Shown: in pieces, positions 1-35,718 of the stretch | Layout of the letters: each line of letters starts with the position of its first letter | How positions within the stretch are numbered: the first letter of the stretch is position 1 | NCBI GenBank assembly: GCA_943357025.1 | Contig: CALRGA010000001.1 | Coordinates: 1-42,407 of the forward strand | From: Candidatus Uhrbacteria bacterium RIFOXYB12_FULL_58_10 | GTDB lineage: Bacteria > Patescibacteriota > Patescibacteriia > UBA9934 > GWF2-40-263 | Direction: 5' to 3' | DNA: 42,407 nt | Position numbers and translations under genes: made by a program | The notes under the pieces: model-generated | The model's database searches: none | What the model was told of the DNA's origin: nothing | What the model saw: the letters and a program-made list of their open reading frames with translations, nothing else

Positions 1-1747
1 GCAGGCCGCCGAGCGCGTCCACTCCGAGGCCGAAGCCCACGACGATCGGAGCGAAGACGGCGAGGAGGCTCGGGGCGATCATCTTGCGGATGGCTTCCTT
101 CGTGACGATGTCTACCGCGCGGCCGTAGTCGGGCTTTCCCGTTCCGTCCATGATGCCCGGGATTTCCTTGAACTGGCGGCGCACTTCCTCTACCACGCAA
201 CCGGCCGCCTCGCCCACGGCCTGCATGGCCATGGCGCCAAAAAGATAGGTGACGAGGCCTCCGAGGAACAGGCCGGCGATGACGTTCGGGTTCGAGAGGC
301 CGAAGTCCATCTTGCCTCCTGCCGCGGTGACCGTGTGCACGAAGTCCCCGAAGAGGACGAGCGTGGCGAGGCCGGCCGAGCCGATGGCGTACGCCTTGGT
401 GACGGCCTTCGTGGTGTTGCCGACCGCGTCGAGCGGATCGGTGACGGCGCGGACGGATTCCGGAAGGCCGGACATCTCGGCGATGCCGCCGGCGTTGTCG
501 GTGATCGGGCCGTAGGCGTCAATCGCCACGATGATTCCGGTCAGCGAGAGCATGGACATGGCCGCGATGGCGATGCCGTACAGCCCGCCGAGCGCGTGCG
601 CGGCCAGGATGCCGACCACGATGGTGAGCACCGGGAGAGCGGTCGACTTCATGGAGAGCGCGATGCCCGCGATGATGTTCGTGCCGTGTCCGGTGACGCT
701 TGCCTCGGCCAGCTTGCGGACCGGGCTGAACTGCGTGCCGGTGTAGTACTCCGTGATCACGATCATGAGGCCCGTGATGGCGAGGCCGAGCAGCGAGCAG
801 AGGAAGATGCTGGAAACGTCGAGTCCGGCCGCGTCCACGAGCATCTTGTTCGTGACGAACCAGAAGCCGATGGCGGCGAAGACTCCGGCGGCGGCGAGGC
901 CCTTGTAGAGCGCGCCCATGATGTTGCCCGACTTTCCAAGCTTGAAGAACATGCTGCCGAGGATCGACGCAACGATGGCGACGGATCCGAGGGCGAGCGG
1001 ATAGAGGAGGACGTTCATGTTGCCCGGGAACAGCAGGTTGCCGAGGATCATTGCCGCGACCGTGGTCACGGCGTACGTCTCGAACAGGTCGGCCGCCATG
1101 CCGGCGCAGTCGCCTACGTTGTCGCCGACGTTGTCGGCGATCACGGCCGGGTTGCGCGGATCATCTTCCGGAATGTTCGCTTCCATCTTTCCCACGAGGT
1201 CGGCGCCCACGTCGGCCGCCTTCGTGAAGATGCCGCCGCCAAGGCGGGCGAACACAGAGATGAGCGACCCTCCGAATCCAAGGCTGATGAGGCCGTGGAC
1301 GGAACCGGTCGCCGCGTAGAATCCAGCCACGGAAAGGAGGCCGAGCCCGACCACGAAGAGTCCGGTCACGGAGCCGCCCTTGACGGCGACGTCGAGCGCC
1401 TTCTCAAGCCCTGACTTCGCGGCCTCCGCGGTACGCACGTTCGCGCGGACGGAAACCGACATGCCGATGAACCCGGCAAGGCCGGAGCAAATTGCTCCCA
1501 CCGCGAACCCCGCGGCAATTTCCCAGTCGAGCACGGCGCCAAGGATGACGAAGACGATCCCGCCGATCATCGCGACCATCTTGTTCTGCCGCGCCATGTA
1601 CGCGTTGGCTCCCTCCTGGATGGCGAGCGAGATGCCGATCATCTTCCCGTCGCCGGCCGGCTGCCTCAAAATCCACTTCGTCAGATACGTCCCGTATGCA
1701 AGAGCGAGCACCGCCGCCCCGATCGCGTAAGAAAGGATTGGATTCAT
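1..1747 (-). CDS. hppA: Membrane-bound proton-translocating inorganic pyrophosphatase (H+-PPase); the 3' end runs off the window
   Basis: Absent from the ORF track because there is no stop in the window. Reverse translation from the ATG at 1747 gives [19 protein letters not shown]... It carries diagnostic motifs [81 protein letters not shown] and [14 protein letters not shown]. The frame is open to position 1. Confidence 0.93.
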
Positions 1748-1756
1748 AGTGCCGGT

Positions 1757-1785
1757 ATGCTAGCAAAAAAAGGGATAACGGTCAA
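1757..1785 (-). promoter_or_regulatory. Predicted sigma70-type promoter of hppA (leaderless layout)
   Basis: On the minus strand: TTGACC (1785-1780), 17-nt spacer, TAGCAT (1762-1757), then 9 nt to the ATG at 1747. Confidence 0.5.
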
Positions 1786-1863
1786 TTGGATGGGATTTAC
1801 GCGCGTGTTTGACAAAACTGGTTTTGAGGCGTATTATTTTCTCACTATGGCTTCGGCCTCCGA

Positions 1864-1885
1864 GGCCCCGACGAGTGTCGGGGCC
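1864..1885 (-). terminator. GC-rich stem-loop 8 nt downstream of the MazF-like stop (possible terminator)
   Basis: GGCCCCGAC-gagt-GTCGGGGCC forms a perfect 9-bp stem. The U-tail is weak on the minus strand and T-rich on the plus side. Confidence 0.4.
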
Positions 1886-1892
1886 GTTCTGT

Positions 1893-2279
1893 TTAAAGGA
1901 ATGCCTGGATTGATTTTTTTACGAGGAGAAACTGATCTTCCGGAAGAATGCCGACCTTTCGCAAAAGACGCTTATTGCTGATGACGCGGATTTGCGTGAG
2001 GGCAATCCAGTTTTCGGTCGATCCGACAAGGACTCGCATGTAAAAAGATTCGCGTCGTTCCTTTCCGGTCATCGGCGCAACAAGTAGCATATCCTTGTTA
2101 TATGCGCGCAAAATCAGAACGGGACGCTCGAAGTTCTCATTCTTTCCATCGATTTCCGAACCGACGTTCGCTCCGAGCGCACACCACCAAACGTCACGCT
2201 TATGCGCATACGTGGCGTCCACGCGATTGTGAAGCCGTTTCTTCAGGCCGATCCATCTGTCGAAATCTTTCTCATGCAT
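1893..2279 (-). CDS. PemK/MazF-family toxin-like protein (about 128 aa), solitary
   Basis: The C-terminal 128 aa of track ORF 1893..2696 read MHEKDFDRWIGLKKRLHNRVDATYAHKRDVWWCALGANVGSEIDGKNENFERPVLILRAY...LTQIRVISNKRLL. The W-x-x-LG-x-N-x-G-x-E-x-DG...RPVLIL pattern is typical of PemK/MazF. Upstream codons of the long ORF have low GC3 and overlap a hairpin, so I chose the ATG at 2279. Confidence 0.8.
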   Translation of the reverse strand: MHEKDFDRWIGLKKRLHNRVDATYAHKRDVWWCALGANVGSEIDGKNENFERPVLILRAYNKDMLLVAPMTGKERRESFYMRVLVGSTENWIALTQIRVISNKRLLRKVGILPEDQFLLVKKSIQAFL

Positions 2280-2312
2280 ACGATTGGTGCCAAAATGAGT
2301 TAAAACGAAAAT

Positions 2313-2337
2313 CCCCGCTGAAAAAATTTCAGTGGGG
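2313..2337 (-). promoter_or_regulatory. Terminator-like hairpin inside the 5' leader of the MazF-like gene (possible attenuator)
   Basis: On the minus strand CCCCACUGAAA-uuu-UUUCAGCGGGG (one G-U pair) is followed by AUUUUCGUUUUA. It lies 34 nt upstream of the ATG at 2279 and downstream of the predicted promoter. Confidence 0.45.
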
Positions 2338-2352
2338 ACATTTCTTATCATC

Positions 2353-2381
2353 ATTTCATCAGGAAAATCCGGTTCTGTCAA
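2353..2381 (-). promoter_or_regulatory. Predicted promoter of the MazF-like gene
   Basis: On the minus strand: TTGACA (2381-2376), 17 nt, TGAAAT (2358-2353). Confidence 0.4.
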
Positions 2382-2390
2382 CGGGTTTGG

Positions 2391-2399
2391 TGTGGATAA
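2391..2399. promoter_or_regulatory. Exact DnaA-box 9-mer in a divergent promoter region
   Basis: TGTGGATAA is the reverse complement of TTATCCACA. It lies between the MazF-like promoter and the TATAAT box of the 2428 gene. Confidence 0.5.
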
Positions 2400-2427
2400 C
2401 GGATGAAACGATGTATAATCTTCTCGT

Positions 2428-3855
2428 ATGAAAGAATCCCGCGGACCGGTATCCGAATTTTTGGCAACGACGAGGGGAAAGATCCTTGCGCTTACGGCGG
2501 GGCTGGCCGTCGCGGGGGTGGCGATCGAGCATGAGACGAGGCCGGTGGCGGCGCGGACGGTGGAGGCGGCTCGGTCGGAACCGCTGTCGCCGCACGAGGC
2601 GCGGATGGAGGCGCTAAAACGGTCTGACACGGGGCGGACGATCGAGACGCCGGAGCAAATTGCCGCGCGGTTCGCGGTAATAGACCCGCTCATCAACCTG
2701 GCGTATTACAAAGACAACTCGAAGACGATGATCATCCAAATCGATCGGTACCTTGGCGTACTCCTCTTTGATCCGCTGACGGAGAAGGACGCGGAGTACG
2801 CGAGGATGAGCCTGGAGGAAGTCGGCGAGTGTCTGCGGCCGATCATCGAGCGCGGCAAGAAAAAAGAGGCCGACGAGGCGCGTCGGATTTTGAAAGGACG
2901 GCTGCACGAGGAGCTGATCGAGACGATACGGCGCATGGATTCCGACGAGGTGGTCGATTCGCGCGTCTTTTTGGGACTGACCGTCCAGGGGCCTCGCTCG
3001 GCATCGTTCGACGACATTCGTGGCGCATGGAAGGATAAGATGACGCGGAAGTCGACCACGTCGGAGAAGGTGCGGACGTTCGCGCCGGTGGTTCGGGAGC
3101 AGCTTAAGGACAAGGAAGGAAGCCTGACCTTCGCGTCGTGGATCGACCGTCAGCAGGAGGCCATCGACCTGTTCGCGGCGCACGCGGAAGAGCTTGGATA
3201 TTCTCCCGACCTGATCAAGCTGATTACCCCCGAGGCGATGCTCGGGGTCATACACGCCGAGATCTTTCCGGACCTCGACGCCGAGACGTTCGTGCGCCTG
3301 GCCCCCGTCCTCTTTGAGACGTACAACGTCGCCTTCGCGCCGGCCATGGGCGACAAGCGGTTTAGCGGCGGACTGGCGCAGATGACGGCCGAGACGTTCG
3401 AGGGAATTTTGAAGAAGCACCGTGTCGCGCTGGAAAAGATCCGCGACACGGATACCGGCGCGACGTTCACCGTCCCGACCGCGGGAAACCGCAAGGAGTT
3501 CGCTTCCTCCATGCTCACCGACGCCAACTCGCAGTTCTTCTACAACGTGTTCGTCCTCGCCGAGAATACGCGCCTGGCGACGCGTGGCGTTTCGAAGGAC
3601 AAGCGGTTCGTTGCCGCGTGGAAGAAGGCGTCCGAGGACGAACGGGCTTTGTATATGGGCGCGCTGATTTCGATGGCGAACAATCTTCCGTCGGCGGCGA
3701 AGCATTCCGCCGAGACTTCTCTTGACGAGCATCCTCGCTCGATCGCGGAGATGGCGCGCAGTTTGTCGGGGAATACGACGGTTGATACGGCGGCACGGAA
3801 TGGTCGGGTTGGAGGGGCGACCGCGGAGTATTTGGTGGAAATGGGGAAAAAATAA
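2428..3855 (+). CDS. Hypothetical membrane-anchored protein (475 aa), no family recognised
   Basis: Long ORF with high GC3 and an N-terminal TM segment ILALTAGLAVAGVAI. TATAAT (2414-2419) lies 8 nt upstream of the ATG. A terminator hairpin follows the stop. Confidence 0.8.
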   Translation: MKESRGPVSEFLATTRGKILALTAGLAVAGVAIEHETRPVAARTVEAARSEPLSPHEARMEALKRSDTGRTIETPEQIAARFAVIDPLINLAYYKDNSKTMIIQIDRYLGVLLFDPLTEKDAEYARMSLEEVGECLRPIIERGKKKEADEARRILKGRLHEELIETIRRMDSDEVVDSRVFLGLTVQGPRSASFDDIRGAWKDKMTRKSTTSEKVRTFAPVVREQLKDKEGSLTFASWIDRQQEAIDLFAAHAEELGYSPDLIKLITPEAMLGVIHAEIFPDLDAETFVRLAPVLFETYNVAFAPAMGDKRFSGGLAQMTAETFEGILKKHRVALEKIRDTDTGATFTVPTAGNRKEFASSMLTDANSQFFYNVFVLAENTRLATRGVSKDKRFVAAWKKASEDERALYMGALISMANNLPSAAKHSAETSLDEHPRSIAEMARSLSGNTTVDTAARNGRVGGATAEYLVEMGKK

Positions 3856-3860
3856 GATTT

Positions 3861-3885
3861 CCCGCCTAAGCCTAGCTTAGGCGGG
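3861..3885 (+). terminator. Intrinsic terminator-like hairpin
   Basis: CCCGCCTAAGC-cta-GCTTAGGCGGG forms an 11-bp perfect stem 6 nt after the stop. The T tail (aatttcg) is short. Confidence 0.6.
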
Positions 3886-3911
3886 AATTTCGTCGACTCG
3901 GGTTCGGGTGT

Positions 3912-4526
3912 ATGATTCACCATATGGTCGCAAATCCTACCTTCCAATTCGAGCGAGACCTTCTATCCCAAGGATTCGCCATGATCGTGGGCGTCGACGA
4001 GGCGGGATCGGGATCGCTTGCCGGCCCTCTTGTCGCTGGCGCGGCGGTCGTGTCCGTCGACTCTCGGATGGCCGGGCTACGGGATTCGAAGCTGATGACG
4101 CCGGCCGCTCGCGAAGAGATGTACGCGGAGATCGTCGAGGGCGCGACCGCCTGGGCCGTCGGGTCCGTGTCGGTGGAGGAGATCGCGGCGCTGGGGCTGC
4201 GTCCGGCGAACTTGCTGGCGATGAGGCGGGCCGTCGAGGGAATCGCCGGGGCCGACTATGCGCTCGTGGACGCGTGGACGATTCCGGGGCTGGCGATTCC
4301 GCAGCGCGGGATCGTGCATGGCGACCGGCTGGTGAAGTCGATCGCGGCCGCGTCGATCGTCGCGAAGGTGACGAGGGACCGGATGATGGTGGAATTGTCG
4401 AAGCGATTTCCCGAGTACGGGTTCGAGGTCCACAAGGGATATGCAACGAAAGCGCATCTCGCAGCGATAGGGTTACATGGGCCCTGCGAGATTCATCGGA
4501 TGGGGTATAAGACATTTCGCGTATGA
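3912..4526 (+). CDS. rnhB: Ribonuclease HII
   Basis: Motifs GVDEAGSGSLAGPLVAGAAVV, DSKLMTPAAREE, HGDRLVKSIAAASIVAKVTRDRMM and GFEVHKGYATKAHLAAI...HRMGYKTF. Confidence 0.92.
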   Translation: MIHHMVANPTFQFERDLLSQGFAMIVGVDEAGSGSLAGPLVAGAAVVSVDSRMAGLRDSKLMTPAAREEMYAEIVEGATAWAVGSVSVEEIAALGLRPANLLAMRRAVEGIAGADYALVDAWTIPGLAIPQRGIVHGDRLVKSIAAASIVAKVTRDRMMVELSKRFPEYGFEVHKGYATKAHLAAIGLHGPCEIHRMGYKTFRV

Positions 4527-4870
4527 TCGACCTTGAAAACATCCGCCCATGGGGCCGGTATGACATTCTGGACGAAGGGCCGACCTTCAAGGCGAAACGG
4601 ATCACCGTCAATCCTTCCGGGCGACTGTCCTACCAGCGCCATCGCCGACGCGCCGAGCACTGGATCGTCATCGAGGGCGAGGCGACCGTGACGCTCGACG
4701 ACGAGATTCTTGTCCGCGTGGCCGGCGAGACGGTCGTGATTCCCGTCCTGGCCAAGCATCGCGTCGAAAATCGCGGAACCGTCCCCCTCGTCTTCATCGA
4801 AGTGCAGGTTGGCGACTACTTCGGGGAGGATGATATCGAGCGGTTTTCTGACGACTACGGAAGGGTGTAA
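4523..4870 (+). CDS. Cupin-domain protein, type II phosphomannose isomerase-like
   Basis: RPWGRYDIL...KRITVNPSGRLSYQRHRRRAEHWIVIEGEATV...IPVLAKHRVENRG. ATGA start/stop overlap with rnhB. Confidence 0.85.
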   Translation: MIDLENIRPWGRYDILDEGPTFKAKRITVNPSGRLSYQRHRRRAEHWIVIEGEATVTLDDEILVRVAGETVVIPVLAKHRVENRGTVPLVFIEVQVGDYFGEDDIERFSDDYGRV

Positions 4871-4920
4871 ATCCATTATTAAAAATTAGCCAATCTTAGC
4901 GGATTATCAACTGAAATTGA

Positions 4921-4949
4921 TTGACAAAATACGAGTTTCGTGGTAATCT
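4921..4949 (+). promoter_or_regulatory. Predicted sigma70-type promoter of the LysM/M23 gene (leadered)
   Basis: TTGACA (4921-4926), 17 nt, TAATCT (4944-4949). The leader is about 60 nt and carries an AAGGA Shine-Dalgarno sequence before the ATG at 5018. Confidence 0.6.
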
Positions 4950-5017
4950 GCGCGGGTCGTTAATTCTCGAAGAGGTGCGCCCATATCGCATTCGGGATCA
5001 AACAACTTTTCGTAAGG

Positions 5018-6364
5018 ATGCTGCTTTCCGCCCTTCGCGGTCTGATTCTGGTAAAGCGCCACGCGGGCACCGTTGTCCGTCCGTTCGCCAAGCCTGCTCT
5101 GGCCATGGGGCGGTTTTTGGTTCGCTGGGTTGGAATCCCTGGATATCGCGTCGTCTTTTATATTCAGCGCCAGGTGGCGAAACTGATCGGTCCGGCGAAG
5201 CACAGGATGCTGTACCTCGTTTCCAACAAGTACGCGGTGCACGCGGCCGTGGTCGCCATCGCGGCCATCGCCTCCTCTGCCAACCTTTCGCAGACGTCGG
5301 TGCGCGCCGAGACGTTCGGTTCGCAGTCGATGCTGTACGCGCTTGTCGCCGGCGACGCGGCATCCTCCGTCGAGGTCGTTTCCGCGGCATCGGCCGGAAC
5401 GCGCGACGTACAGCCGTCCTCGTACATGGACGACGACGCGATCGACGCGAACTCCCACATCGACTTCGCCGACGACGGCGAAAGCTACGCCACCACGAGC
5501 GTCGGAAGCGCCGTCGCCTCGCCGACCCTCTCGCAGGGCACCGCCTCGGTCGCGGCCCGCGAGAAGACGGAGAACTACGTCGTCGAGGAAGGCGACACGC
5601 TCGGGGCCATCTCGGACAAGTTCGGCCTTAACCTGAGCACGGTGCTCTGGGCGAACGGACTTACCTTCCGCAGTACGATTAACAAAGGGCTCTCGCTTTC
5701 GATCCCGCCGGTCGACGGCGTGATGTACACGGTGAAGAAGGGCGACACGCTAAACAAGATCGCGCTTGGCTACGGCGTTGAAACCGAGAAGATCATCGCG
5801 ACAAACAAGCTCGCGAGCGCCGACGACCTTCGCGTGGGCGACGACCTCCTTCTTCCGGGTGCCGAGCCTCCGGCGCCTGCCGTGCGAAAGAAGACGGCGC
5901 CCCTCGCCTCGCTGTTTACCGACAAGAGTTCCGGATCGTCCTCGACCGCCGGCGGCGGAAGCAAGTGGACGCCGTTCGTGGCGCCGAAGGGCGACGGCGA
6001 CGTCTCCGGAACGTGGGTGTGGCCGACGACCTGGCATGTGATCACCCAGAAGTACGGCTGGAAGCATACGGGCATCGACCTCGACGGCGATTACAACACG
6101 CAGAGCTACGCGGCGTCCGACGGCGTGGTCATCTTCTCCGGCTGGCGCAACGGCTACGGCAACACTGTGGAGATCAACCACGGCAACGGCGTGGTAACGC
6201 GCTACGGCCATCACTCGAAGATGTTCGTGAAGGAGGGCGACGTCGTAAAGGCCGGCCAGACGATCGCGCAGACCGGCTCGACCGGCCGCTCGACCGGAAC
6301 GCACCTCCACTTCGAGGTGATCGTGAACGGAAAATTCCAGAACCCGCTGAACTACGTGCGATAA
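5018..6364 (+). CDS. LysM-repeat M23-family peptidoglycan endopeptidase
   Basis: N-terminal TM segment. Two LysM repeats (YVVEEGDTLGAISDKFGL, YTVKKGDTLNKIALGYGV). M23 core HTGIDLDG...GYGNTVEINHGNGVVTRYGH...GSTGRSTGTHLHFEV. Confidence 0.92.
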   Translation: MLLSALRGLILVKRHAGTVVRPFAKPALAMGRFLVRWVGIPGYRVVFYIQRQVAKLIGPAKHRMLYLVSNKYAVHAAVVAIAAIASSANLSQTSVRAETFGSQSMLYALVAGDAASSVEVVSAASAGTRDVQPSSYMDDDAIDANSHIDFADDGESYATTSVGSAVASPTLSQGTASVAAREKTENYVVEEGDTLGAISDKFGLNLSTVLWANGLTFRSTINKGLSLSIPPVDGVMYTVKKGDTLNKIALGYGVETEKIIATNKLASADDLRVGDDLLLPGAEPPAPAVRKKTAPLASLFTDKSSGSSSTAGGGSKWTPFVAPKGDGDVSGTWVWPTTWHVITQKYGWKHTGIDLDGDYNTQSYAASDGVVIFSGWRNGYGNTVEINHGNGVVTRYGHHSKMFVKEGDVVKAGQTIAQTGSTGRSTGTHLHFEVIVNGKFQNPLNYVR

Positions 6365-6370
6365 AAAAAA

Positions 6371-6400
6371 CCGGTCCGATGTTTATCGGACCGGTTTTTT
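6371..6400 (+). terminator. Rho-independent terminator
   Basis: CCGGTCCGAT-gttt-ATCGGACCGG followed by TTTTTT. Confidence 0.85.
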
Positions 6401-6417
6401 GATATACTGTATCCGTT

Positions 6418-6798
6418 ATGCAAACCACCTGTTCTTCCTGCAAGGTTAATGTCGACGCGCTGAAGGCGAACTGCGCGGCGTGCGGTCTCACGCTTACGCT
6501 TGAGCCGGACGAGGCGAGGCGCGCGCGTTCGCTGCGGATGCCGTCGCTCGGGGCGTTGCTGTTTACGCAGGGATGGACGCTTGGCGCGAGGACGTACCTG
6601 TTGTTTCTTTTGTCGCTCATCCCCATCGTCGGCATCGGCGTTCTGATCGTTTCCGTCATCTTCGGTCGCCGAATGTCATGGAAGCACGGCGAGTGGACGA
6701 GCTGGGAGGCGTTCGAGGAACGGATGAGGACGCTCGACCTAATTGCGATCGCTTGGATCGGAATGCTCGGCGCCATCTGGCTCCTTTTGCGGAAATAG
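6418..6798 (+). CDS. Small zinc-ribbon membrane protein (126 aa)
   Basis: CSSCKVNV...CAACG zinc ribbon followed by 2-3 hydrophobic helices. TATACT (6403-6408) lies 9 nt before the ATG. Confidence 0.7.
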   Translation: MQTTCSSCKVNVDALKANCAACGLTLTLEPDEARRARSLRMPSLGALLFTQGWTLGARTYLLFLLSLIPIVGIGVLIVSVIFGRRMSWKHGEWTSWEAFEERMRTLDLIAIAWIGMLGAIWLLLRK

Positions 6799-6824
6799 AG
6801 GAGATTTGATAGAGTGTGGCGATT

Positions 6825-7502
6825 ATGATCAACCACCTCGCCATCATTCCGGACGGTAATCGACGCTGGGCCAAGGATCGCGGACTTCCCACGCTCGAGG
6901 GTCACCGCCGCGGGTACGACAAGATCAAGGATATCGGTGGCTGGTGCGTCGACCGCGGGATCCGAAACCTGACCGTCTGGGGATTCTCGACCGAGAACTG
7001 GAAGCGGACGGAAGAGGAGGTCGGCTACCTGATGAATCTTATCTTTCTCGCGCTAACGAAGGAACTCCCCTTTTATAATAAAAAAAAGATTCGCATACGC
7101 GTGATCGGGCTTCGCGACGGACTGCCAAAAAACGTCCTGCGCGCGATTGACGAAGCTGAAGCGGCGACCGTGACGAACGACAAGGGGCAGATAAACATCT
7201 GCGTGAATTACGGCGGCCATGCGGAAATGGTCGCGGCGACGAAAAAGCTGATCGCGGAGGGACGCGCCGCCGACGAGATCACGGAAGAGTCGTTCGCCGC
7301 CGCGACCTGGTTCGCCGGAATCCCGGATGTGGATCTGATCGTACGAACGAGCGGTGAGCAGAGGCTGTCGGGGTTCTTGCCGTGGAACGGCGCGTACGCG
7401 GAGCTGACCTTTCTCAAAAAGCACTTTCCGGATTTCATGGAGGGCGATTTGGATGGGATAATTAAGGAGTTTGGGATGAGACAGCGGAGGTTCGGAAAGT
7501 AA
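6825..7502 (+). CDS. uppS: Undecaprenyl-diphosphate synthase (isoprenyl transferase)
   Basis: HLAIIPDGNRRWAKDRGLP, GHRRGYDK, LTVWGFSTENWKR, RTSGEQRLSGFLPW. The track start is a GTG at 6816. I prefer the ATG at 6825 because TTGCGG-17-TAGAGT ends 9 nt upstream of it. Confidence 0.93.
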   Translation: MINHLAIIPDGNRRWAKDRGLPTLEGHRRGYDKIKDIGGWCVDRGIRNLTVWGFSTENWKRTEEEVGYLMNLIFLALTKELPFYNKKKIRIRVIGLRDGLPKNVLRAIDEAEAATVTNDKGQINICVNYGGHAEMVAATKKLIAEGRAADEITEESFAAATWFAGIPDVDLIVRTSGEQRLSGFLPWNGAYAELTFLKKHFPDFMEGDLDGIIKEFGMRQRRFGK

Positions 7503-7511
7503 TCGTTTCCA

Positions 7512-9029
7512 TTACCCCGTCACTCCCTCCGACAGCCGGTACTGCAGCGCCTCCGCAATATCCATGTCGCGTATCGTTTCCTCTCCCGCCAGGTCCGCGA
7601 TCGTTCGGGCGACTTTGAGGACTCGGCCGTATCCGCGCGGCGACAATGCCTGCGCGTTCAATGCCTGCTCCAGCAATTTTTTCCCTCCTTCATCGGCGCG
7701 ACACCAATCTTTTATCCGTGACGTCGGGATCTCGGAGTTCGTGAACAGCGGCGTTCCCGCGAATCGGTTCGACTGTCTTTTTCGCGCCATTAGGACGCGG
7801 TCTCGGATTTCCGACGAGGCCTCGGAAGGGATGTCAGAGACCAGCGTCGCGGTGTCGAGGTTCGGGACCTCGATCACGAGGTCGAAGCGGTCGAGGAGCG
7901 GGCCGGAGATGCGCTTGCGATAGAGCGCGATCGACTTGGCCGAACAGACGCACGGGCGGCGCGGATCGGTCGCGAAGCCGCATGGGCAAGGGTTCATCGC
8001 GGCGAGAAGTAAAAATCGCGATGGAAACCGCATGGTCGCGGCGGCCCGCGAGACGGTCACTTCCCCGTCTTCGAGCGGTTGGCGCAGATGCTCGAGGACA
8101 TGGCGCGAGAACTCGGGAAGCTCGTCGAGAAACAGCACTCCGCGGTGCGCGAGGCTCACTTCGCCCGGGCGCGGCCAGGCTCCGCCGCCCACGAGCGAGA
8201 CGGCCGAGCACGAGTGGTGCGGCGAACGGAACGGGCGTACGCCAATCAGCCCCTCGCCGCGCGCAAGGATACCGGCGACGGACGCGATTGACGTGGCCTC
8301 GAGCGACTCCTCGCGGGTCAGCGGCGGAAGGATCGAGGGAATTGCGCGGGCAAGGAGGGTCTTTCCCGTACCCGGGGGACCCTTGAGAAGGACGTTGTGC
8401 GCGCCGGACGCGGCGATCTCGAGGCCTCGCTTCGCGTGCATCTGCCCTTTGATATCGCAGAAGTCGATCGGAAATGTCCGTGTCGCCACCGTCTCGTCCG
8501 CGATCGACGGGACGATCTCCGCGATCCCGTCGAGATGATTGACGATCTGCCGAAGCGACGTCGCGCCGAGCACGACGAGGTTCGGCACGACCGCGGCCTC
8601 CTGCGCATTCTCGGCCGGGACGAGAATCGCACCGTAACCTCGCTTGGCGGCCATAAGCGCGGCGGTGAGCACTCCGTTCACGGGACGAAGCGAGCCGTCG
8701 AGGGCAAGTTCCCCGATCATCACGGTCGTTGAAAGCAAATCGGCGCGAACGAATCCCCTCGCGGCAAGCAGCGAAACGGCAATCGGCACGTCGAACATCG
8801 GTCCCTGCTTCTTAATATCGGCCGGCGCGAGGTTTACGATGACGCGGTGACGCGGAAATTCGAAGTTCGAGTTGCGGATCGCCGACTTGATGCGCTCGCG
8901 CGCCTCCTTCACTCCGGTATCCGGAAGGCCGACAACGTTGAAGCACCCCATCCCCTGGGAAACGTCGGTCTCAACGGCGATCGGCTCGGCGGAAATTCCA
9001 ATGATTGCGGCGGAAATGACATGTGGCAT
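7512..9029 (-). CDS. comM: YifB/ComM-family Mg-chelatase-like ATPase
   Basis: Lon-like N-domain, Walker A GPPGTGKTLLA, LFLDELPEF, and the C-terminal ComM helix-turn-helix region ...VLKVARTIADLAG. Confidence 0.93.
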   Translation of the reverse strand: MPHVISAAIIGISAEPIAVETDVSQGMGCFNVVGLPDTGVKEARERIKSAIRNSNFEFPRHRVIVNLAPADIKKQGPMFDVPIAVSLLAARGFVRADLLSTTVMIGELALDGSLRPVNGVLTAALMAAKRGYGAILVPAENAQEAAVVPNLVVLGATSLRQIVNHLDGIAEIVPSIADETVATRTFPIDFCDIKGQMHAKRGLEIAASGAHNVLLKGPPGTGKTLLARAIPSILPPLTREESLEATSIASVAGILARGEGLIGVRPFRSPHHSCSAVSLVGGGAWPRPGEVSLAHRGVLFLDELPEFSRHVLEHLRQPLEDGEVTVSRAAATMRFPSRFLLLAAMNPCPCGFATDPRRPCVCSAKSIALYRKRISGPLLDRFDLVIEVPNLDTATLVSDIPSEASSEIRDRVLMARKRQSNRFAGTPLFTNSEIPTSRIKDWCRADEGGKKLLEQALNAQALSPRGYGRVLKVARTIADLAGEETIRDMDIAEALQYRLSEGVTG

Positions 9030-9069
9030 AAAACAAAAGTCCCCTCGCGTTATTTAACGTGCGGGGACT
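9030..9069 (-). terminator. Intrinsic terminator-like hairpin downstream of lspA, abutting the comM start codon
   Basis: On the minus strand the AGUCCCC...GGGGACU stem (9069-9038) is followed by UUUGUUUU (9037-9030). The comM ATG is at 9029. Confidence 0.5.
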
Positions 9070-9116
9070 TGCTCTTAGCTTCAATCTATCATGCGGAAGG
9101 CTCCGTGTCAATCCTC

Positions 9117-9650
9117 CTACGCTCCTGGAGCCGGAGCTTCGGAGGACAAGTCCTCATCGTCTCCTTCGTCGTGCTGGTGATTCGGGTGGCCGTGCTGGTG
9201 CAATCCGGGGACGCGGCTCGCGTAGAGAAGCGTGACGACTCCCGCGACGATGACGATGTCGGAGACGTTGATCGCCGAGCGACCGAACAGGATGAGATAG
9301 TCGACCGTGAAGCCGTACGCGACGCGGTCATACGTGTTTCCAATCGCGCCGATGACGATCATGACCGCGGAAAATGCCACGACGGGCTTTTCTTTGAAGT
9401 TCTTGCGCGCGACCCACAGCAGCGCGAGGCCGATGACTGCCGAGACGCTTATGATTAAGTGCATCTTGAACGGGATGTCGAATGCAATCCCCCAGTTCTT
9501 GTGAATTGCGAGCGCGACGATGCCCGGGGCCGTGAGAGCGCTCTCATCCGGAAGGGCCGACAACGCCCAGTGCTTCACGACCTCGTCGGCGAACACTAAG
9601 ATGCCGACGACCGGAAGCAGCCAGAGGATGGACGCGCGCGGTCTCGTCAC
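9117..9650 (-). CDS. lspA: Lipoprotein signal peptidase II
   Basis: NWGIAFDIPF and IGAIGNTYDRVAYGFTVDYL motifs with 4 TM helices. The track ORF extends to 9740 but would overlap the upstream gene by 94 nt. The in-frame GTG at 9650 gives a GTGA overlap with that gene's stop. Confidence 0.85.
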   Translation of the reverse strand: MTRPRASILWLLPVVGILVFADEVVKHWALSALPDESALTAPGIVALAIHKNWGIAFDIPFKMHLIISVSAVIGLALLWVARKNFKEKPVVAFSAVMIVIGAIGNTYDRVAYGFTVDYLILFGRSAINVSDIVIVAGVVTLLYASRVPGLHQHGHPNHQHDEGDDEDLSSEAPAPGA

Positions 9651-10021
9651 ATCTCCTGGGTGAGCGTCTTCTTGCACTGGATGCAGGACGAAGACGTCGG
9701 CCTCGCGGCGATTCGGCGCTCGTCGATAGGGAGCTTGCAATACTTGCAGGTGCCGTATGTTCCTGCCTCGATCATCTTGAGGGCGCCGTCGATATCCTTC
9801 AGTGATTTCTCCAGTTCTTCCTCCATCGAAAGGTTGTCGCTGTATTGGGCGGCCTCGGCGGCATTATCGCCCTCCTCGGTGCCAACGTCCTTGAAGTCGA
9901 CCTGAAATTCAGGTTCGCCCGGGTTTGGGTTGCGATGGGAAAATTGCGCGAGTTCCTGTGTCACGCGCGCGCGGTCGGCAGTAAGCAGTTCCTTGATCGC
10001 CTGGATATCGAGTGTGCCCAT
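9647..10021 (-). CDS. DksA/TraR-family C4-type zinc-finger protein
   Basis: C-terminal sequence GTYGTCKYCKLPIDERRIAARPTSSSCIQCK after a coiled-coil-like N-terminal half. Confidence 0.88.
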   Translation of the reverse strand: MGTLDIQAIKELLTADRARVTQELAQFSHRNPNPGEPEFQVDFKDVGTEEGDNAAEAAQYSDNLSMEEELEKSLKDIDGALKMIEAGTYGTCKYCKLPIDERRIAARPTSSSCIQCKKTLTQEM

Positions 10022-10045
10022 ATTGATTTCGCTAAGAATACACAG

Positions 10046-10074
10046 ATGATAGCAGTGTTTCGACGAAGACGCAA
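10046..10074 (-). promoter_or_regulatory. Predicted promoter of the dksA-type gene
   Basis: On the minus strand: TTGCGT (10074-10069), 17 nt, TATCAT (10051-10046). The leader to the ATG at 10021 is 24 nt. Confidence 0.5.
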
Positions 10075-10084
10075 TGAATTTTCA

Positions 10085-10132
10085 AATAAAAAAGAGGCCG
10101 TCACCTGATTTTAAATAATCTAAGGTGCGGCC
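10085..10132 (-). terminator. Intrinsic terminator ending the candidate ncRNA
   Basis: On the minus strand GGCCGCACCU (10132-10123) pairs with AGGUGaCGGCC (10107-10097), followed by UCUUUUUUAUUU. Confidence 0.6.
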
Positions 10133-10464
10133 CCTTTCGGGGCCAGCGTCAGCCTTTTCAGGCATCGGGTTTCGATTCCTTCTGGGAAGGACGTAAAACT
10201 CGATGCCCGGAACTGCATGTTGCATTGGACCCGTAGGCGTACTTCTCTACCACTCTTTGGTTTCATCCGCGCTTCGAACACGAGGGATCGAATGATTGCG
10301 GAGTTACCGTAGATGGTTTTGCTTTTGTTTTGATCTTTCAATCAGAACAGTAGAGAAGCGGGATATTTTCCGAAAGTCATATGGTCGATTGCGTGGGGCA
10401 CAATCGACCGGCTTTCGGAAAACCTCCCTGTGAGGTGTTTGGAAGGAACGAACTGTTGGGTACT
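10090..10464 (-). ncRNA. Candidate structured non-coding RNA of about 375 nt, family not identified
   Basis: Bounded by a near-consensus promoter and an intrinsic terminator. Helices seen by eye: nested perfect helices 10366-10376/10412-10422 (11 bp) and 10383-10391/10401-10409 (9 bp); a long-range 9-bp helix 10242-10250/10350-10358; helix 10161-10167/10201-10207; and a GAAA-capped hairpin at 10129-10144. The only ORF is 73 aa with a TTG start and weak GC3. Confidence 0.5.
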
Positions 10465-10469
10465 TCTAT

Positions 10470-10498
10470 ATAATACATCCTTGAACACAAAAAGTCAA
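10470..10498 (-). promoter_or_regulatory. Predicted sigma70-type promoter of the candidate ncRNA
   Basis: On the minus strand: TTGACT (10498-10493), 17 nt, TATTAT (10475-10470). Confidence 0.6.
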
Positions 10499-10569
10499 AA
10501 ATCAAGAAATGAAGTAACCTAGCGAAAATATCACGAAGTGTGAAATTTTTGTGCTCAAGTGCTCTGAAC

Positions 10570-10621
10570 TGTGGATAAAAGTTATCCACAGTTATACCTA
10601 GTTTTCACCAAGTTATCCACA
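10570..10621. promoter_or_regulatory. Cluster of three exact and two degenerate DnaA boxes
   Basis: Exact boxes: TGTGGATAA 10570-10578, TTATCCACA 10582-10590, TTATCCACA 10613-10621. Degenerate boxes: TTATACCTA 10592-10600, TTTTCACCA 10602-10610. An AT-rich tract lies immediately to the left. Confidence 0.65.
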
Positions 10622-10622
10622 T

Positions 10623-11921
10623 TCAGTAACAGAGATGGATCGTTGTGTGAAAATACCCTTCATCAAGTCCGATGACACCGTAGGTATTTGCTAAAACACT
10701 GAGTAATGCAGCGGATCTCGCATGCATGGAGTCCTTAGACAGGTCGAGCAACGAGCGAACGTCGACGAATGCCGCGTTCGAGGAGCAAAGCGGGCGTACC
10801 CCCGTCTTCTTTTCACCCAGGCTGAAGTCTAGCAACGCTTGTGAATTTGTGATCGTCACGATCTCATCCAGTTCCGAGGAAAATACATATCCGCCTTCTC
10901 TGCTTGAGGCACGCGATACAATTGTGCCGGCGACGGTCGTCTCCTCGATCGTGGTAAGGGACGGATCGACGATAATCTCATCCGCGACCGAGTTGTCCGG
11001 CAGCACAAGCGGCTGGATTCTTGGTATTTGTAGCGCTGCGGCCATCTGAACGAGCTTTTCCTGCGATTCCTTTTTGAATTGTACCGAGGAGGTCGTAAGC
11101 AGATAATCCACGAAATCCTTGTTTTTCACCAGGATGACCGTTCCTTTGTTTGAGAGGAGATGAGAGGCGAGGAATGCCGCCGAAGGGGTCTGATACGAGG
11201 AAAGAATCGTATCGATAGCATTTGTTACCCCATCCACATTCGTGTTTGGCAACGCTGGTGTGGACATCACGGCGATCGTCGACTCTGGAACAGTTTTCCA
11301 TGGGAGGACGGACAGGTGTTGTTTTGGCAACCGAATGGTCGTCTGACCCTTTGTCGCATAGATTGCGCCGGAAAGATCCGTTTCCCCTGGGACATACATG
11401 CTTCCGATGCGTGGATTCCATGGAAAATGAACGGAGCCGAACCAAATATGCGACGGATTCCACCCTGATCGAGCCATCGGGCGGTCGGACAGGAGGATGA
11501 CTCCAGGCGCGGTCTCCTGGACGATGATGCCCAGGGCGTCGAGTTCGGACGTCGGCAGGTCTGCTTTCGCCGCCCGCACGGCCACCGACCGCGTTCCGTC
11601 CGTCGCGACGAACAGCGAGAACTCGCCGCGCGCGAACGGCTGAATGTCGTCGGTGGTCAGTGGGCGGTTGGAAACAAGTGGAATTTTGTCTAAAACGCGC
11701 TCCGTCGCGTCCCAAGTCAGTAGATTCGGAAGGAAATGTAGAACGACAGCCGTATCCTGCGGGGCGGATGAGGAGGTTGTGTCCCGCCCGTACCAAATCG
11801 TCGCGGCGACCATCAGAATGAGAAACCCGATGGTTGCCGCCACGGCAAAGAGCGAAACAACCCGCCGTGAAAGGCGGGTTGTCTGCTGGTATCGGTGGAG
11901 TGGGATGTTCAGCCTCTGCAC
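10623..11921 (-). CDS. Hypothetical membrane-anchored protein (432 aa)
   Basis: Long ORF immediately downstream of pnp. N-terminal TM segment VVSLFAVAATIGFLILMVAATIWY. No motif recognised. Confidence 0.8.
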   Translation of the reverse strand: MQRLNIPLHRYQQTTRLSRRVVSLFAVAATIGFLILMVAATIWYGRDTTSSSAPQDTAVVLHFLPNLLTWDATERVLDKIPLVSNRPLTTDDIQPFARGEFSLFVATDGTRSVAVRAAKADLPTSELDALGIIVQETAPGVILLSDRPMARSGWNPSHIWFGSVHFPWNPRIGSMYVPGETDLSGAIYATKGQTTIRLPKQHLSVLPWKTVPESTIAVMSTPALPNTNVDGVTNAIDTILSSYQTPSAAFLASHLLSNKGTVILVKNKDFVDYLLTTSSVQFKKESQEKLVQMAAALQIPRIQPLVLPDNSVADEIIVDPSLTTIEETTVAGTIVSRASSREGGYVFSSELDEIVTITNSQALLDFSLGEKKTGVRPLCSSNAAFVDVRSLLDLSKDSMHARSAALLSVLANTYGVIGLDEGYFHTTIHLCY

Positions 11922-11942: not shown

Positions 11943-14105
11943 TTACGCGTTTTTCGGGCGCTCCGGGAATACGTTTCCCGTGGCCTGCTTCATTGAGAGG
12001 TTAATGCGGCCAAGGTTGTCGATTTCCGTGACCTTCACGAACACCTCCTGGCCCACCTTGACGATATCACCCGGCTCGGCAACGCGCCAGGGAGCCATTT
12101 CGCTCACGTGCACAAGACCTTCCTGCTTCGGCAGGAACTCGACGAACGCTCCGAAACCCATGAGACGCGTCACTTTTCCCTTGAACTGCTCGCCCACGGC
12201 GGCCTTCCGCGTGAGGTTGCGGACCCAGTCGTATGCCTGCTGCGCGGCCTCCGCGTTGACCGACGTGATCATGACGAGTCCGTCGTCCTCGATATCGATG
12301 GATCCGACGCCCGTGGTGGCGATGATCTCGTTGATCATCTTTCCTCCAGGTCCGATGACGGCTCCGATCGATTCCGGGTCGATGCGCAGCGTGATGATGC
12401 GCGGGGCGAACTGCGACAGCTCGTTGCGCGGCGCGGCGATGGCGCCGTCCATGACGTCGAGAATCTCGAGGCGGGCGGTAAGCGCCTGCGCCAGCGTCTG
12501 GGCGAGCACTTCCGGGCCGACGCCCTTGGTCTTCGTGTCCATCTGAATGGCGGTGATTCCGGCGCGGGTTCCGGCGATCTTGAAGTCCATGCCTCCGGCG
12601 CCGTCCTCGAGGTCCTGCAGGTCGGTGATTACCTTCCAGTTTCCCTTGTCATCGGTCGCGAGGCCCATCGCGATCCCGGCCACGGCGGCCTTGATCGGAA
12701 CTCCGGCGTCCATCAGGGCGAGCGACGATCCGCAGGTGGAGCCCATCGACGACGAGCCGTTCGACGAAAGGACCTCGGAAACGACGCGGATCGTGTACGG
12801 GAACGCCTCCTTTTCCGGCAGCATCGGCAGGATCGCCTTTTCCGCGAGCGATCCGTGTCCGATCTCGCGGCGTCCCGGCCCGCGCATCGGCTTGCATTCG
12901 CCGACCGAGTACGGGGGGAAGTTATAGTGATGGAAGTAATTCTTGGTTCCCTGGAATTCCATCGAGTCAAGCGTCTGCTTGTCGCCCGGCGAGCCGAGCG
13001 TCACCGTCGAGAGCACCTGCGTCTCGCCGCGCATGAAGTGTCCTGATCCGTGAAGGCGCTTGAACAGGCCCACTTCGGAGATCAGCTGGCGGATCTGCGT
13101 GATGGAGCGTCCGTCGACGCGCTTCTGCTCCTCGAGGATCATGCGGGACACCTCGTGCTCGAGCACCTCCTCGACGATGGACGTGCCGTACTTGGCGTCG
13201 GCCGCCTCGATTCCCTTCTCGAGCAGGAACGCCTCGGTGCGCTTCTTCGTCTCGGTCTTCTGCTGCGCGCGCTCAACCTTCGTTGCGCGGGGCGTTCCGA
13301 AGAAAAGTTCCATGACCTGCGCCGTGATAAACGGGCGGGCGATGGACTGAACCTCTTCGCGCCGGGCGAACTTTGCGGCCTCGGCGTCGTTCTTCGGGGA
13401 AACCATGTCTCGCTTGGCCTTGCCGACCGCGGCGCGGGCCTCCTCGATAAGCCTGATCGGCACGGCGAGATGCTTGGACCCGAAGGCGAACGCGTCGACG
13501 ACGGTCGATTCGACCGCCTCGCTCGCTCCCGCCTCGACCATGATCACCTTTTCCGGCGTTCCGGCGAACGACAGGTCGAGGCCGCTCTTGGCGCGCACCT
13601 CGTACGTCGGGTTGATCGTCCACTCGCCGCCGATCTGGCCGATGCGGATGTTTGCGATCGGGCCGTCCCACGGGATGTCCGAGATGTGCAGCGCGCAGGC
13701 GGCGCCGATGAGTCCGATGATGTCCGGATCGTTTTCGCCGTCGAACTGGAGGACGGTGACGATCACTTGGATGTCATTGCGCATGCGGTCGTCGAACAGC
13801 GGGCGGATGGCGCGGTCGATGTAGCGCGCGACGAGCATCGCGTCGTCGGTGGCGCGACCTTCCTTCTTCATGAACCGCGAGCCTTTGATGCGTCCGGCGG
13901 CGTAGAAGCGCTCTTCGTACTCCACCTGGAGCGGAAAGAAGTCGAGGCCGTCGCGAAGCCCCGTGCTCATGCACGCGGTGGCGAGGACGACGGTGTCGCC
14001 GTACTGAACGGTGCAGGAGCCGTTCGCCGGATTGGCGAACTTTCCCGTCTCGATGATGAGGTCCTTTCCGCCCCACTGCGCGGCAAACGTCTTGGTTTCT
14101 GACAT
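11943..14105 (-). CDS. pnp: Polyribonucleotide nucleotidyltransferase (PNPase)
   Basis: Two RNase PH domains ([17 protein letters not shown], ...[21 protein letters not shown]), a KH domain ([15 protein letters not shown]) and an S1 domain ([15 protein letters not shown]). The track start is 14156. I prefer the ATG at 14105 ([13 protein letters not shown]...), which gives a typical N-terminus. Confidence 0.95.
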
Positions 14106-14180
14106 ACTCTTGATCGTTCCCGTCGAAAGTGAAGGTATCGAGATTACTCTCGACATCTCTGTGTCTCGACGGGAGCGTTG

Positions 14181-35075: not shown

Positions 35076-35080
35076 AAAAA

Positions 35081-35106
35081 GACTCATCGGAAGATGAGTC
35101 TTTTTT
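35081..35106 (+). terminator. Rho-independent terminator of the tRNA operon
   Basis: GACTCATC-ggaa-GATGAGTC followed by TTTTTT. Confidence 0.85.
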
Positions 35107-35609
35107 GTTGAGTCTGCTTTGTTATGAGTCGAAACTTTTGGATTACCACGCTTTCTCCCACATTAAAGCTTTGAAGGACGAGTCGCTCAGGACAATGAAA
35201 TAACTCTATTCGCTACAAGTCCGATACCTCGCGACTCTGCCGTGTTGTTTCAAACGTAATTGAAAGCGGAGCGAAGAAATTTATCGACGAGATTTCTTTG
35301 TCATCTATGGACTCCTCGCGATGATATAAATTGCGGATATCATATCCTTTTTATGACAGGGTAGCTTATGCGTTATTTATTTTGCTGCAACATGTCTTCG
35401 TTCCGTTTGATCACAAACTATGATCACCGACCGACAAAAACGACTTAAACGTCGAATGAAAGAATTTCAATTATAAGTTTCGTGTGAAACAAGAGAAGAT
35501 GTCTTTCAGAATTATTTTGAGGAAATTATTTTGTTAATTAATAACAAATGCATAAAAATCGGATTATAATTTTAATTTGTCTACACCAGTGTAGCCAAAT
35601 TTCATCAAA

Positions 35610-35648
35610 TGTGGATAAGTATTCGAAAAGTGTTTATCCTGTGGGTAA
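35610..35648. promoter_or_regulatory. One exact and one near-exact DnaA box
   Basis: TGTGGATAA at 35610-35618 is exact. TGTGGGTAA at 35640-35648 has one mismatch. Confidence 0.45.
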
Positions 35649-35687
35649 TTATAATGAATACGAAAGAATTAATCGCGAAAGAAAATA

Positions 35688-35715
35688 ATTTATTCGCTAA
35701 AATCAGCGAATAAAT
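35688..35715. promoter_or_regulatory. Perfect 11-bp inverted repeat just upstream of the operon -35 box (operator-like site or AU-rich terminator)
   Basis: ATTTATTCGCT-aaaatc-AGCGAATAAAT, ending 3 nt before the TTGACC at 35719. Confidence 0.5.
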
Positions 35716-35718
35716 CTT

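Follow-up and report, generated by a model that had tools for sequence, protein, structure and literature searches.

The locus described here raises the question of what a tight group of perfect DnaA boxes is doing beside an AT-rich tract in a bacterial genome of about 1 Mb: whether it marks the origin of replication, whether it titrates or reactivates DnaA in the manner of datA or DARS, or whether it controls a neighbouring gene. The organism belongs to the CPR/Patescibacteria, which are uncultivated, have genomes of this size and possess few regulators, and to our knowledge almost nothing is known about the control of their replication or about its coupling to gene expression. The window, that is, the whole stretch of DNA analysed (42,407 nucleotides), is the entire contig C1 of Candidatus Uhrbacteria bacterium RIFOXYB12_FULL_58_10, whose genome assembly comprises 891 kb in 63 contigs, is 96% complete and has 61% G+C. 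A match to PamT, a CPR pilus protein, was also found in this genome and supports its membership of the CPR.

The initial annotation of the window had interpreted the cluster as either an oriC or a locus of the datA/DARS type. Here we set out the evidence from the window, from the rest of the genome and from related genomes, on the basis of which we consider it probable that the cluster lies outside but near oriC and acts as the upstream control module of a structured-RNA gene.

DnaA boxes in the window and in the genome

The 9-mer scored as a DnaA box was TTATCCACA, which reads TGTGGATAA in the direction of the RNA gene. Exact copies are found in the window at 2391 (−), 10570 (−), 10582 (+), 10613 (+) and 35610 (−), all of them intergenic, as compared with 0.08 expected from 100 dinucleotide shuffles, none of which reached five. 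The scan therefore bears out the five intergenic copies that had been counted by eye, and it reproduces, with their orientations, the three exact boxes that had been seen within 52 bp (10570–10621). The tract of about 130 bp rich in A and T that had been described to the left of these boxes is equally evident: positions 10440–10569 have 35% G+C against 60% in the window, a value matched or undercut by just 38 of 4228 intervals of 130 bp.

Genome-wide, the 9-mer occurs 22 times, with 2.7 copies expected, and takes third place when compared with the 1680 9-mers that share its composition (mean count 1.9); it is therefore over-represented. Its copies are mainly singletons and lie mainly in low-GC spacers, several of them 9–11 nt upstream of a −35 element; by this excess and this placement, DnaA boxes look like regulatory elements throughout the genome. 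The initial annotation had left it to such a scan to decide whether the cluster stands out. The 9-mer turns out to be common and mostly single, yet there is one multi-box cluster, 10570–10621 being the only site in the 891 kb with more than one exact box per 300 bp.

Organization of the module

On the minus strand, the order of transcription is pnp, ORF432, the boxes, the promoter, the RNA gene, the DksA/TraR-type gene, lspA and comM; the parts of the module and its flanking genes are listed in Table 1. Box 1 begins 1 nt past the stop codon of ORF432, and the weak box that follows is separated from it by 2 bp, which results in an 11-bp period. In 19 sequences of the family, the site at offset +11 has on average 2.89 mismatches to the box, against a background of 6.54 ± 0.66. 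Two degenerate copies had been reported between the exact boxes and both are present, with three mismatches each, but conservation across the family holds for 10602–10610 alone; the copy at 10592–10600, considered as a second conserved weak box, was rejected on this ground. Box 3 faces the AT-rich tract.

Table 1. Features of the box cluster, the RNA gene and the adjoining genes in the window
Feature	Position	Strand	Description
DksA/TraR-type zinc-finger gene	9647–10021	−	Downstream of the RNA; synteny conserved
Structured RNA gene	10090–10467	−	About 375 nt; ends in hairpin and U-run
Near-consensus sigma-70 promoter	10470–10498	−	TTGACT-N17-TATTAT; 10/12 matches
A-tract/stem/U-tract hairpin	10524–10550	−	Candidate terminator of the upstream gene
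Conserved spacer motif	10546–10559	−	cTTGAGCACAAAAA; family consensus cTTGAACACAAaa; 63–64 bp from box 1
DnaA box 3	10570–10578	−	Exact, inverted; 3 bp from box 2 (gap 10579–10581)
DnaA box 2	10582–10590	+	Exact; oriented like box 1; 31 bp start to start
Degenerate copy	10592–10600		TTATACCTA; 3 mismatches
Weak DnaA box	10602–10610	+	TTTTCACCA; 3 mismatches; conserved; orientation of box 1
DnaA box 1	10613–10621	+	Exact TTATCCACA; promoter-distal half of the conserved pair
ORF432	10623–11921	−	432 aa; upstream gene
pnp	11943–14156	−	Upstream of ORF432

The layout common to the family consists of box 1, the weak box and box 2, followed by cTTtt, about 20 variable bases, cTTGAACACAaa, a T-run and the promoter, the latter with a −35 of TTGAC, a 17-bp spacer and an extended −10 (TGgTATTATA). 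This promoter is conserved across genera, and the extended −10 is the form seen in the relatives. In the window's genus, the spacer motif at 10546–10559 and the promoter spacer tTTTTGTGTTCAAg are inverted repeats of each other. The hairpin between the boxes and the promoter is strong in close relatives (z-scores of −4.25, −3.61 and −2.64 for three sequences from the window's genus), weak in the window itself (−1.56) and absent in two other genera (about 0); it was rejected as a universal part of the module, being genus-specific.

The RNA gene and its protein-coding neighbours

The consensus fold derived from an alignment of 14 sequences shows compensatory changes in 34 of its 62 predicted pairs. 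A covariance model built on the 5′ 142 positions of the RNA matches the window at 10316–10467 and finds one copy per genome in 77 of the 151 genomes of the order, with 55 of 65 genomes in family f1, most of those in f2, f3, f5, f6 and f7, and 5 of 64 in f4. The rest of the class, about 145 genomes, gave four weak matches only, and these have exact-box clusters about 100–170 bp upstream of a strong promoter.

The region of about 375 nt, in which the transcript is predicted to run from about 10463 (5′ end) to about 10095 (3′ end), holds no credible open reading frame. Neither the RNA nor the spacer could be assigned to a credible family by a search of Rfam over 9900–10750, at gathering thresholds and at E ≤ 10. 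A search of the whole genome detected no RNase P RNA (RF00010), and none of the conserved RNase P sequence motifs were seen in the RNA; tmRNA sits on contig C2. The covariation, together with a promoter and a terminator of its own, indicates that the RNA gene is real. The suggestion that a promoter for a non-coding RNA lies next to the cluster is thus supported by a near-consensus promoter, a covarying RNA and a fixed distance between promoter and boxes.

The product of the upstream gene, ORF432, is a predicted membrane-anchored, β-rich protein, modelled by AlphaFold2 (mean pLDDT 83.6) with an N-terminal helix at residues 19–44 and a β-rich body. A function in replication was considered for it and rejected: nothing marks ORF432 as a replication protein, because it has no sequence match in Pfam, NCBIfam or the PDB, and comparison of the AlphaFold2 model with PDB folds using Foldseek gave noise-level matches only.

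Conservation of the boxes across genomes

The direct pair TGTGGATAA-N22-TGTGGATAA (40 bp) is present as one copy per genome in 55 of 65 genomes of f1 and in 7 of 9 genomes of its sister family f6. The reversed control pattern gave 0 occurrences, and the exact pair is found in none of the other families of the order; in f2, f5 and f7, an exact box occupies the same place, mostly with near-exact partners at different spacings. ORF432 homologues were detected in 23 of 24 sampled f1 genomes, and nearly all of them are followed, right after the stop codon, by two identically oriented exact boxes whose starts are 31 bp apart, the distance from box to stop being 1–3 nt in most f1 genomes and 32–42 nt in some. 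The inverted box 3 is more restricted: it is found in four genomes of the window's genus (G000, which is that of the window, G003, G004 and G007), at a gap of 2–3 bp, and in six f6 genomes, which are all those whose upstream regions were read, at a gap of 8 bp, whereas most f1 genomes have the direct pair alone.

The position of the pair is fixed with respect to the RNA promoter. Box 1 lies 121–123 bp from the −35 in 31 of 39 genomes and 118–120 bp from it in f6, and the sequence between boxes and promoter varies despite this fixed distance. In all of the 59 genomes that have both the pair and an RNA match, the two are on the same contig and the same strand with the pair upstream, box 1 being located 138–192 bp upstream of the start of the RNA model (mode 153–154). 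In G026, G029, G034 and G038, a pair or triple of boxes precedes the RNA promoter and no homologue of ORF432 was detected; judging from these genomes, it is the RNA promoter and not ORF432 that the boxes accompany, as is also seen in f2, f5 and f7 and in the four weak matches outside the order. Comparison of orthologous spacers, which the initial annotation had recommended, therefore reveals a cluster that is conserved, occurs once per genome and is locked to the promoter of the RNA.

Location of the replication origin

The possibility that the cluster is oriC, or one half of a bipartite origin, with unwinding at the AT-rich tract and help in its opening from transcription of the RNA, has several points in its favour. 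It is the strongest exact-box cluster of the genome and adjoins a tract of 35% G+C, at which box 3 is directed; the module also has the highest DnaA-box score in the ±80 kb around dnaA of G013 and in the 80 kb read around that gene in G009. On the other hand, dnaA (C9:9280–10770) is absent from the window, as had been noticed, and is found together with dnaN on contig C9, where the spacer between the two genes (C9:10771–11023) contains three boxes in one orientation, three in the opposite one, and then an AT-rich tract adjoining dnaN. G011 and G013 share this layout, and the dnaA-dnaN spacers hold 4–10 degenerate boxes plus an AT-rich tract. By its sequence, C9:10771–11023 is a classical dnaA-dnaN origin arrangement and a better oriC candidate than the module.

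GC skew is coherent within contigs, and in the window it is positive on either side of the cluster (+0.057 for 1–10600 and +0.062 for 10600–35400). Skew breakpoints were located with a two-segment likelihood model for each genome, in which the value of a site is its lnL loss relative to the best breakpoint. For G013, with the best breakpoint at 303.0 kb and the spacer at 304.7 kb, the values are −3.9 for dnaA-dnaN and −52.7 for the module; for G028 (best breakpoint 46.5 kb, dnaA at 47.5 kb), −7.5 for the dnaA gene and −49.8 for the module; for G011 (240.25 kb), −9.7 for dnaA-dnaN and −20.6 for the module; and for G009 (168.75 kb), −4.4 and −11.4, respectively. In the genome of the window, G000, with C9 reversed and joined to C1, the best breakpoint is at C9:4465, and the values are −5.5 for dnaA-dnaN and −13.9 for the module. 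In all five genomes, a breakpoint at dnaA-dnaN or dnaA thus accounts for the skew better than one at the module does. For an origin at the module it may be said that the switch in G011 falls between dnaA and the module, and that G077 has no switch near dnaA; the latter genome shows no switch within the 200 kb around dnaA and module, and is uninformative. A skew switch coinciding with the module was found in none of the genomes examined, and the strand bias of genes, being weak in these genomes, does not help to place the origin.

The module is nevertheless close to dnaA. Synteny with three relatives indicates that C9, reversed, precedes C1, and the module is therefore at least about 20 kb from dnaA in the genome of the window. 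The corresponding distance is 9–20 kb in six f1 genomes and 55 kb in G077, also of f1, 4.5 kb in G029 (f6), about 16 kb in G030 (f7) and 50 kb in G028 (f5); in G036 (f4), which has no RNA match, the ORF432-like gene is about 10 kb from dnaA. Proximity to the origin, at 4.5–55 kb from dnaA, is thus seen in 11 genomes of about 1 Mb.

The polarity of the boxes also differs from that of an origin. The conserved pair reads TGTGGATAA towards the AT-rich tract, whereas the boxes beside the AT-rich tract in the dnaA-dnaN spacers read TTATCCACA towards it. R1 of E. coli oriC likewise reads TTATCCACA towards the AT-rich tract. The side of the pair on which an origin would be opened is therefore the coding sequence of ORF432. 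The unwinding module described for bacterial origins consists of a box with at most two mismatches, a spacer no longer than 16 bp, a minimum of three DnaA-trios and AT-rich DNA in the direction in which the box points (PMC8287927). Under these criteria, no in-register run of three or more trios (NTN/NAN) was found within 16 bp of the three boxes. The AT-rich tract itself is filled by the promoter of the RNA and the terminator-like hairpin. The module thus shares with a classical dnaA-dnaN oriC equipped with the basal unwinding system (PMC8287927, PMC6669920) the presence of exact boxes beside an AT-rich tract, and differs from it in the reversed polarity of the pair, the lack of DnaA-trios and the lack of a skew switch. 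Given the skew, the polarity, the trios, the content of the AT-rich tract and the array between dnaA and dnaN, we regard an origin at the cluster as very unlikely, and this part of the initial proposal is not supported.

Discussion

In this study, we have described a cluster of DnaA boxes at a constant position upstream of the promoter of a conserved structured RNA. In our best reading, the cluster would tie transcription of the RNA to DnaA, with titration of DnaA as a side effect. We infer that DnaA binds at the boxes and that its binding changes promoter output. DnaA would bind the two exact boxes, which at 31 bp apart, that is, about three helical turns, would lie on the same face of the DNA, and would cooperatively fill the weak box located 2 bp past box 1. 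A conserved weak box in the same orientation is what would be expected for cooperative DnaA loading, and a 2-bp spacing is also found in the low-affinity arrays of E. coli oriC. In the window's genus, DnaA would be placed on the inverted third box as well. The resulting nucleoprotein complex, 121–123 bp from the promoter as measured from box 1 to the −35, would modulate transcription of the RNA of about 375 nt, so that the RNA level would follow the availability of DnaA and hence the status of replication initiation. Located about 5–55 kb from dnaA/oriC, the module would therefore be duplicated early, and it would sequester some of the DnaA, in the manner of the DnaA-box clusters (DBCs) of B. 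subtilis.

As to the sign of the effect, repression or insulation seems slightly more likely to us, since a promoter so near to consensus would not require an activator. Simple occlusion is unlikely, given that the promoter is overlapped by none of the conserved boxes; possible routes are looping, a bend in the AT-rich spacer and insulation from read-through. Some observations count against regulation. The boxes are 130–175 bp upstream of the transcription start, which is far for a direct contact with RNA polymerase; a near-consensus promoter may need no regulator; the fixed spacing could result in part from compaction of a short spacer; and the proximity to the origin may be a mere result of conserved synteny.

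If the cluster mainly controlled the activity of DnaA, either by titration or inactivation, as datA and the DBCs do, or by reactivation of ADP-DnaA, as DARS does, its position at the RNA promoter would be secondary. We consider this unlikely. The cluster is the sole multi-box group of exact sites in the genome and is origin-proximal in all genomes checked, and titration is favoured by the density of boxes near the origin, according to PMC12371093 and PMC3245932; yet pure titration needs neither a promoter spacing fixed to ±1 bp in two families nor the strict co-occurrence with the RNA (59/59), and the cluster holds just 2–3 strong sites out of the 22 of the genome. With regard to reactivation, in the DARS core of E. 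coli (DARS1 and DARS2) boxes I and II are opposed, with a gap of 5 bp between them, and boxes II and III have the same direction (PMC6868365), and this pattern of two opposed boxes and one in the same direction is common to the window's genus and f6. The opposed boxes are, however, 3 bp apart in the window, 2–3 bp in the genus and 8 bp in f6; a gap of 22 bp, within which a weak box lies, separates the boxes in the same direction; and most of f1 lacks the inverted box. With a gap of 3 instead of 5 bp and an inverted box missing from most f1 genomes, a DARS-like role is therefore at best lineage-specific. E. coli datA, which promotes hydrolysis of DnaA-ATP, has about five boxes and an essential IHF site, as compared with the three strong boxes of the module. 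For the initial proposal of a datA- or DARS-like locus, the support extends to a non-origin DnaA locus, conserved, unique per genome, origin-proximal and fixed to the RNA promoter, and stops short of a specific identity with datA or DARS.

The boxes might alternatively serve the upstream gene: DnaA, or another protein that binds the 9-mer, would sit 1–3 nt past the stop codon of ORF432 and block read-through from pnp-ORF432, thereby insulating the RNA gene. Complexes of DnaA with its boxes can reportedly block transcribing RNA polymerase in E. coli, in work on asnC attributed to Schaefer and Messer, box 1 adjoins the stop codon in most f1 genomes, and a recognisable intrinsic terminator is present in the spacer of some genera only. 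This explanation nonetheless seems improbable to us: genomes in which no homologue of ORF432 was found, and in which the upstream sequence differs, still have the boxes at the RNA promoter, and it is from the promoter that the boxes keep a constant distance, their distance from the stop codon being mostly 1–3 nt and in some cases 32–42 nt. Control of the RNA promoter by a DnaA-box cluster near the origin is thus the reading that we retain.

The closest documented analogues of a module of this kind are the DBCs of B. subtilis, which are mostly origin-proximal, regulate their neighbours and restrain initiation (PMC3245932, Okumura et al. 2012); among their targets, sda is activated and dnaA, ywlC and yydA are repressed (PMC3245932). 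Judged by sequence, the likeness lies in intergenic clusters of consensus boxes outside oriC but near it, placed in the DBCs upstream of DnaA-controlled genes, with a proposed double role in regulation and in the capture of DnaA. Unlike them, the module has 2–3 strong sites only, a rigid pairing at 31 bp and a distance of about 122 bp to the promoter that is kept across families; its predicted target is a structured non-coding RNA, and its lineage is CPR/Patescibacteria. A second parallel is CcnA of Caulobacter crescentus, a cell-cycle non-coding RNA located at the origin and presumed to be activated by CtrA (PMC8959179). Both are non-coding RNA genes at or near the origin with a promoter wired to a master regulator, a wiring that in the present case is proposed for DnaA. 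The module differs in having DnaA boxes and in lying 4.5–55 kb from dnaA, whereas CcnA is at the origin itself; by description, the RNA is also the longer of the two (about 375 nt), and the Rfam search gave no match to CcnA.

More tentatively, the module could be a sensor of replication status peculiar to this CPR lineage, in which occupancy of the phased boxes by DnaA would set the level of an origin-proximal structured RNA found across the order, which in turn would act on the control of growth or replication, with lineages that carry the inverted box perhaps using it as a DARS-like recycler. By analogy, such a sensor might do by means of DnaA, in organisms that possess very few transcription factors, what the CcnA circuit does in Caulobacter, although we hold this comparison, too, to be doubtful.

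In the literature searched, no paper describing the module was found. DnaA-box clusters and DnaA-regulated promoters are already known; what is new is a cluster of rigid geometry in front of a conserved RNA outside Rfam, in the CPR. The strongest cluster of perfect boxes in these genomes is in all probability not the origin, and origin finders based on box counting would therefore misplace oriC by 5–55 kb. Being unique, rigid and located beside an RNA promoter near the origin, the module provides a concrete and testable handle on the control of replication in the CPR. Two predictions follow from it: a link between the RNA and the replication cycle, and a second role for DnaA in these bacteria, as a transcription factor; the latter agrees with the genome-wide excess of boxes and the occurrence of several of them before a −35.

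Results and discussion

The probable origin of replication of the source genome is the spacer between dnaA and dnaN, on contig C9, where degenerate DnaA boxes, three in one orientation and three in the opposite one, are followed by an AT-rich tract adjoining dnaN. The same layout of boxes and tract is found in the dnaA-dnaN spacers of two relatives (G011 and G013). In G077, a nearly closed genome of the same family, GC skew is negative throughout a 200-kb stretch (C1:600001-800000, L103-L112) that includes both dnaA, at 665 kb, and the module of DnaA boxes, promoter and structured RNA gene, at 721 kb, so that either the origin of this relative lies away from dnaA, or the region has been rearranged or misassembled. 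Within the window, the spacer of lowest G+C content is the one preceding the Pam-type pilus operon, and its GC skew passes from positive to negative, a change that is probably a local effect. The spacer holds an exact and a one-mismatch DnaA box 30 bp apart, the latter adjoining a TATAAT immediately 5' of the operon. In low-GC segments of the genome outside the window, the commonest set of words is a family of repeated 9-mers (for example ATTTGTAGA, AATCGGCTAC, CAAAACTAC and CTACTAATC), and their place at the top of the word counts suggests that this genome contains a repeat array.

Location of the boxes, spacers and motifs (window coordinates unless a contig of the source genome is named)
Feature	Location	Strand	Context
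Conserved spacer motif cTTGAGCACAAAAA	10546-10559	-	
Promoter spacer tTTTTGTGTTCAAg	10479-10492	-	
AT-rich spacer	35076-35718		23-29% G+C
Exact DnaA box	35610		inside the AT-rich spacer
One-mismatch DnaA box TGTGGGTAA	35640		inside the AT-rich spacer
Single exact DnaA box	2391-2399	-	before a -35 hexamer
Single exact DnaA boxes	C17:11067, C34:10542, C31:8153		before -35 hexamers
dnaA-dnaN spacer (L001/L002)	C9:10771-11023, outside the window		degenerate DnaA boxes and AT-rich tract

The conserved spacer motif and the promoter spacer of the module are inverted repeats of each other, and a GTGTTCA word, repeated beside the boxes and within the promoter in several families and in both orientations, may serve as a binding site for a further factor or as a low-affinity site for DnaA. 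ORF432 (10623-11921, minus strand), the gene upstream, encodes a conserved, membrane-anchored, beta-rich protein present in 23 of the 24 family genomes sampled; its AlphaFold2 model is confident, and no relatives were detectable in Pfam, NCBIfam or PDB. Inspection of the RNA at 10090-10467 revealed no RNase P motifs. A genome-wide search of the source genome (96% complete) did not detect a bacterial RNase P RNA (RF00010), which may be divergent or unassembled.

At four sites in the source genome, a lone exact DnaA box is followed, 9-11 nt downstream, by a -35 hexamer, as exemplified by the MazF/PemK-like gene (1893-2279), which is preceded by TTATCCACA-N9-TTGACA. This placement of single boxes suggests a role for DnaA as a promoter-proximal transcription factor of several genes.
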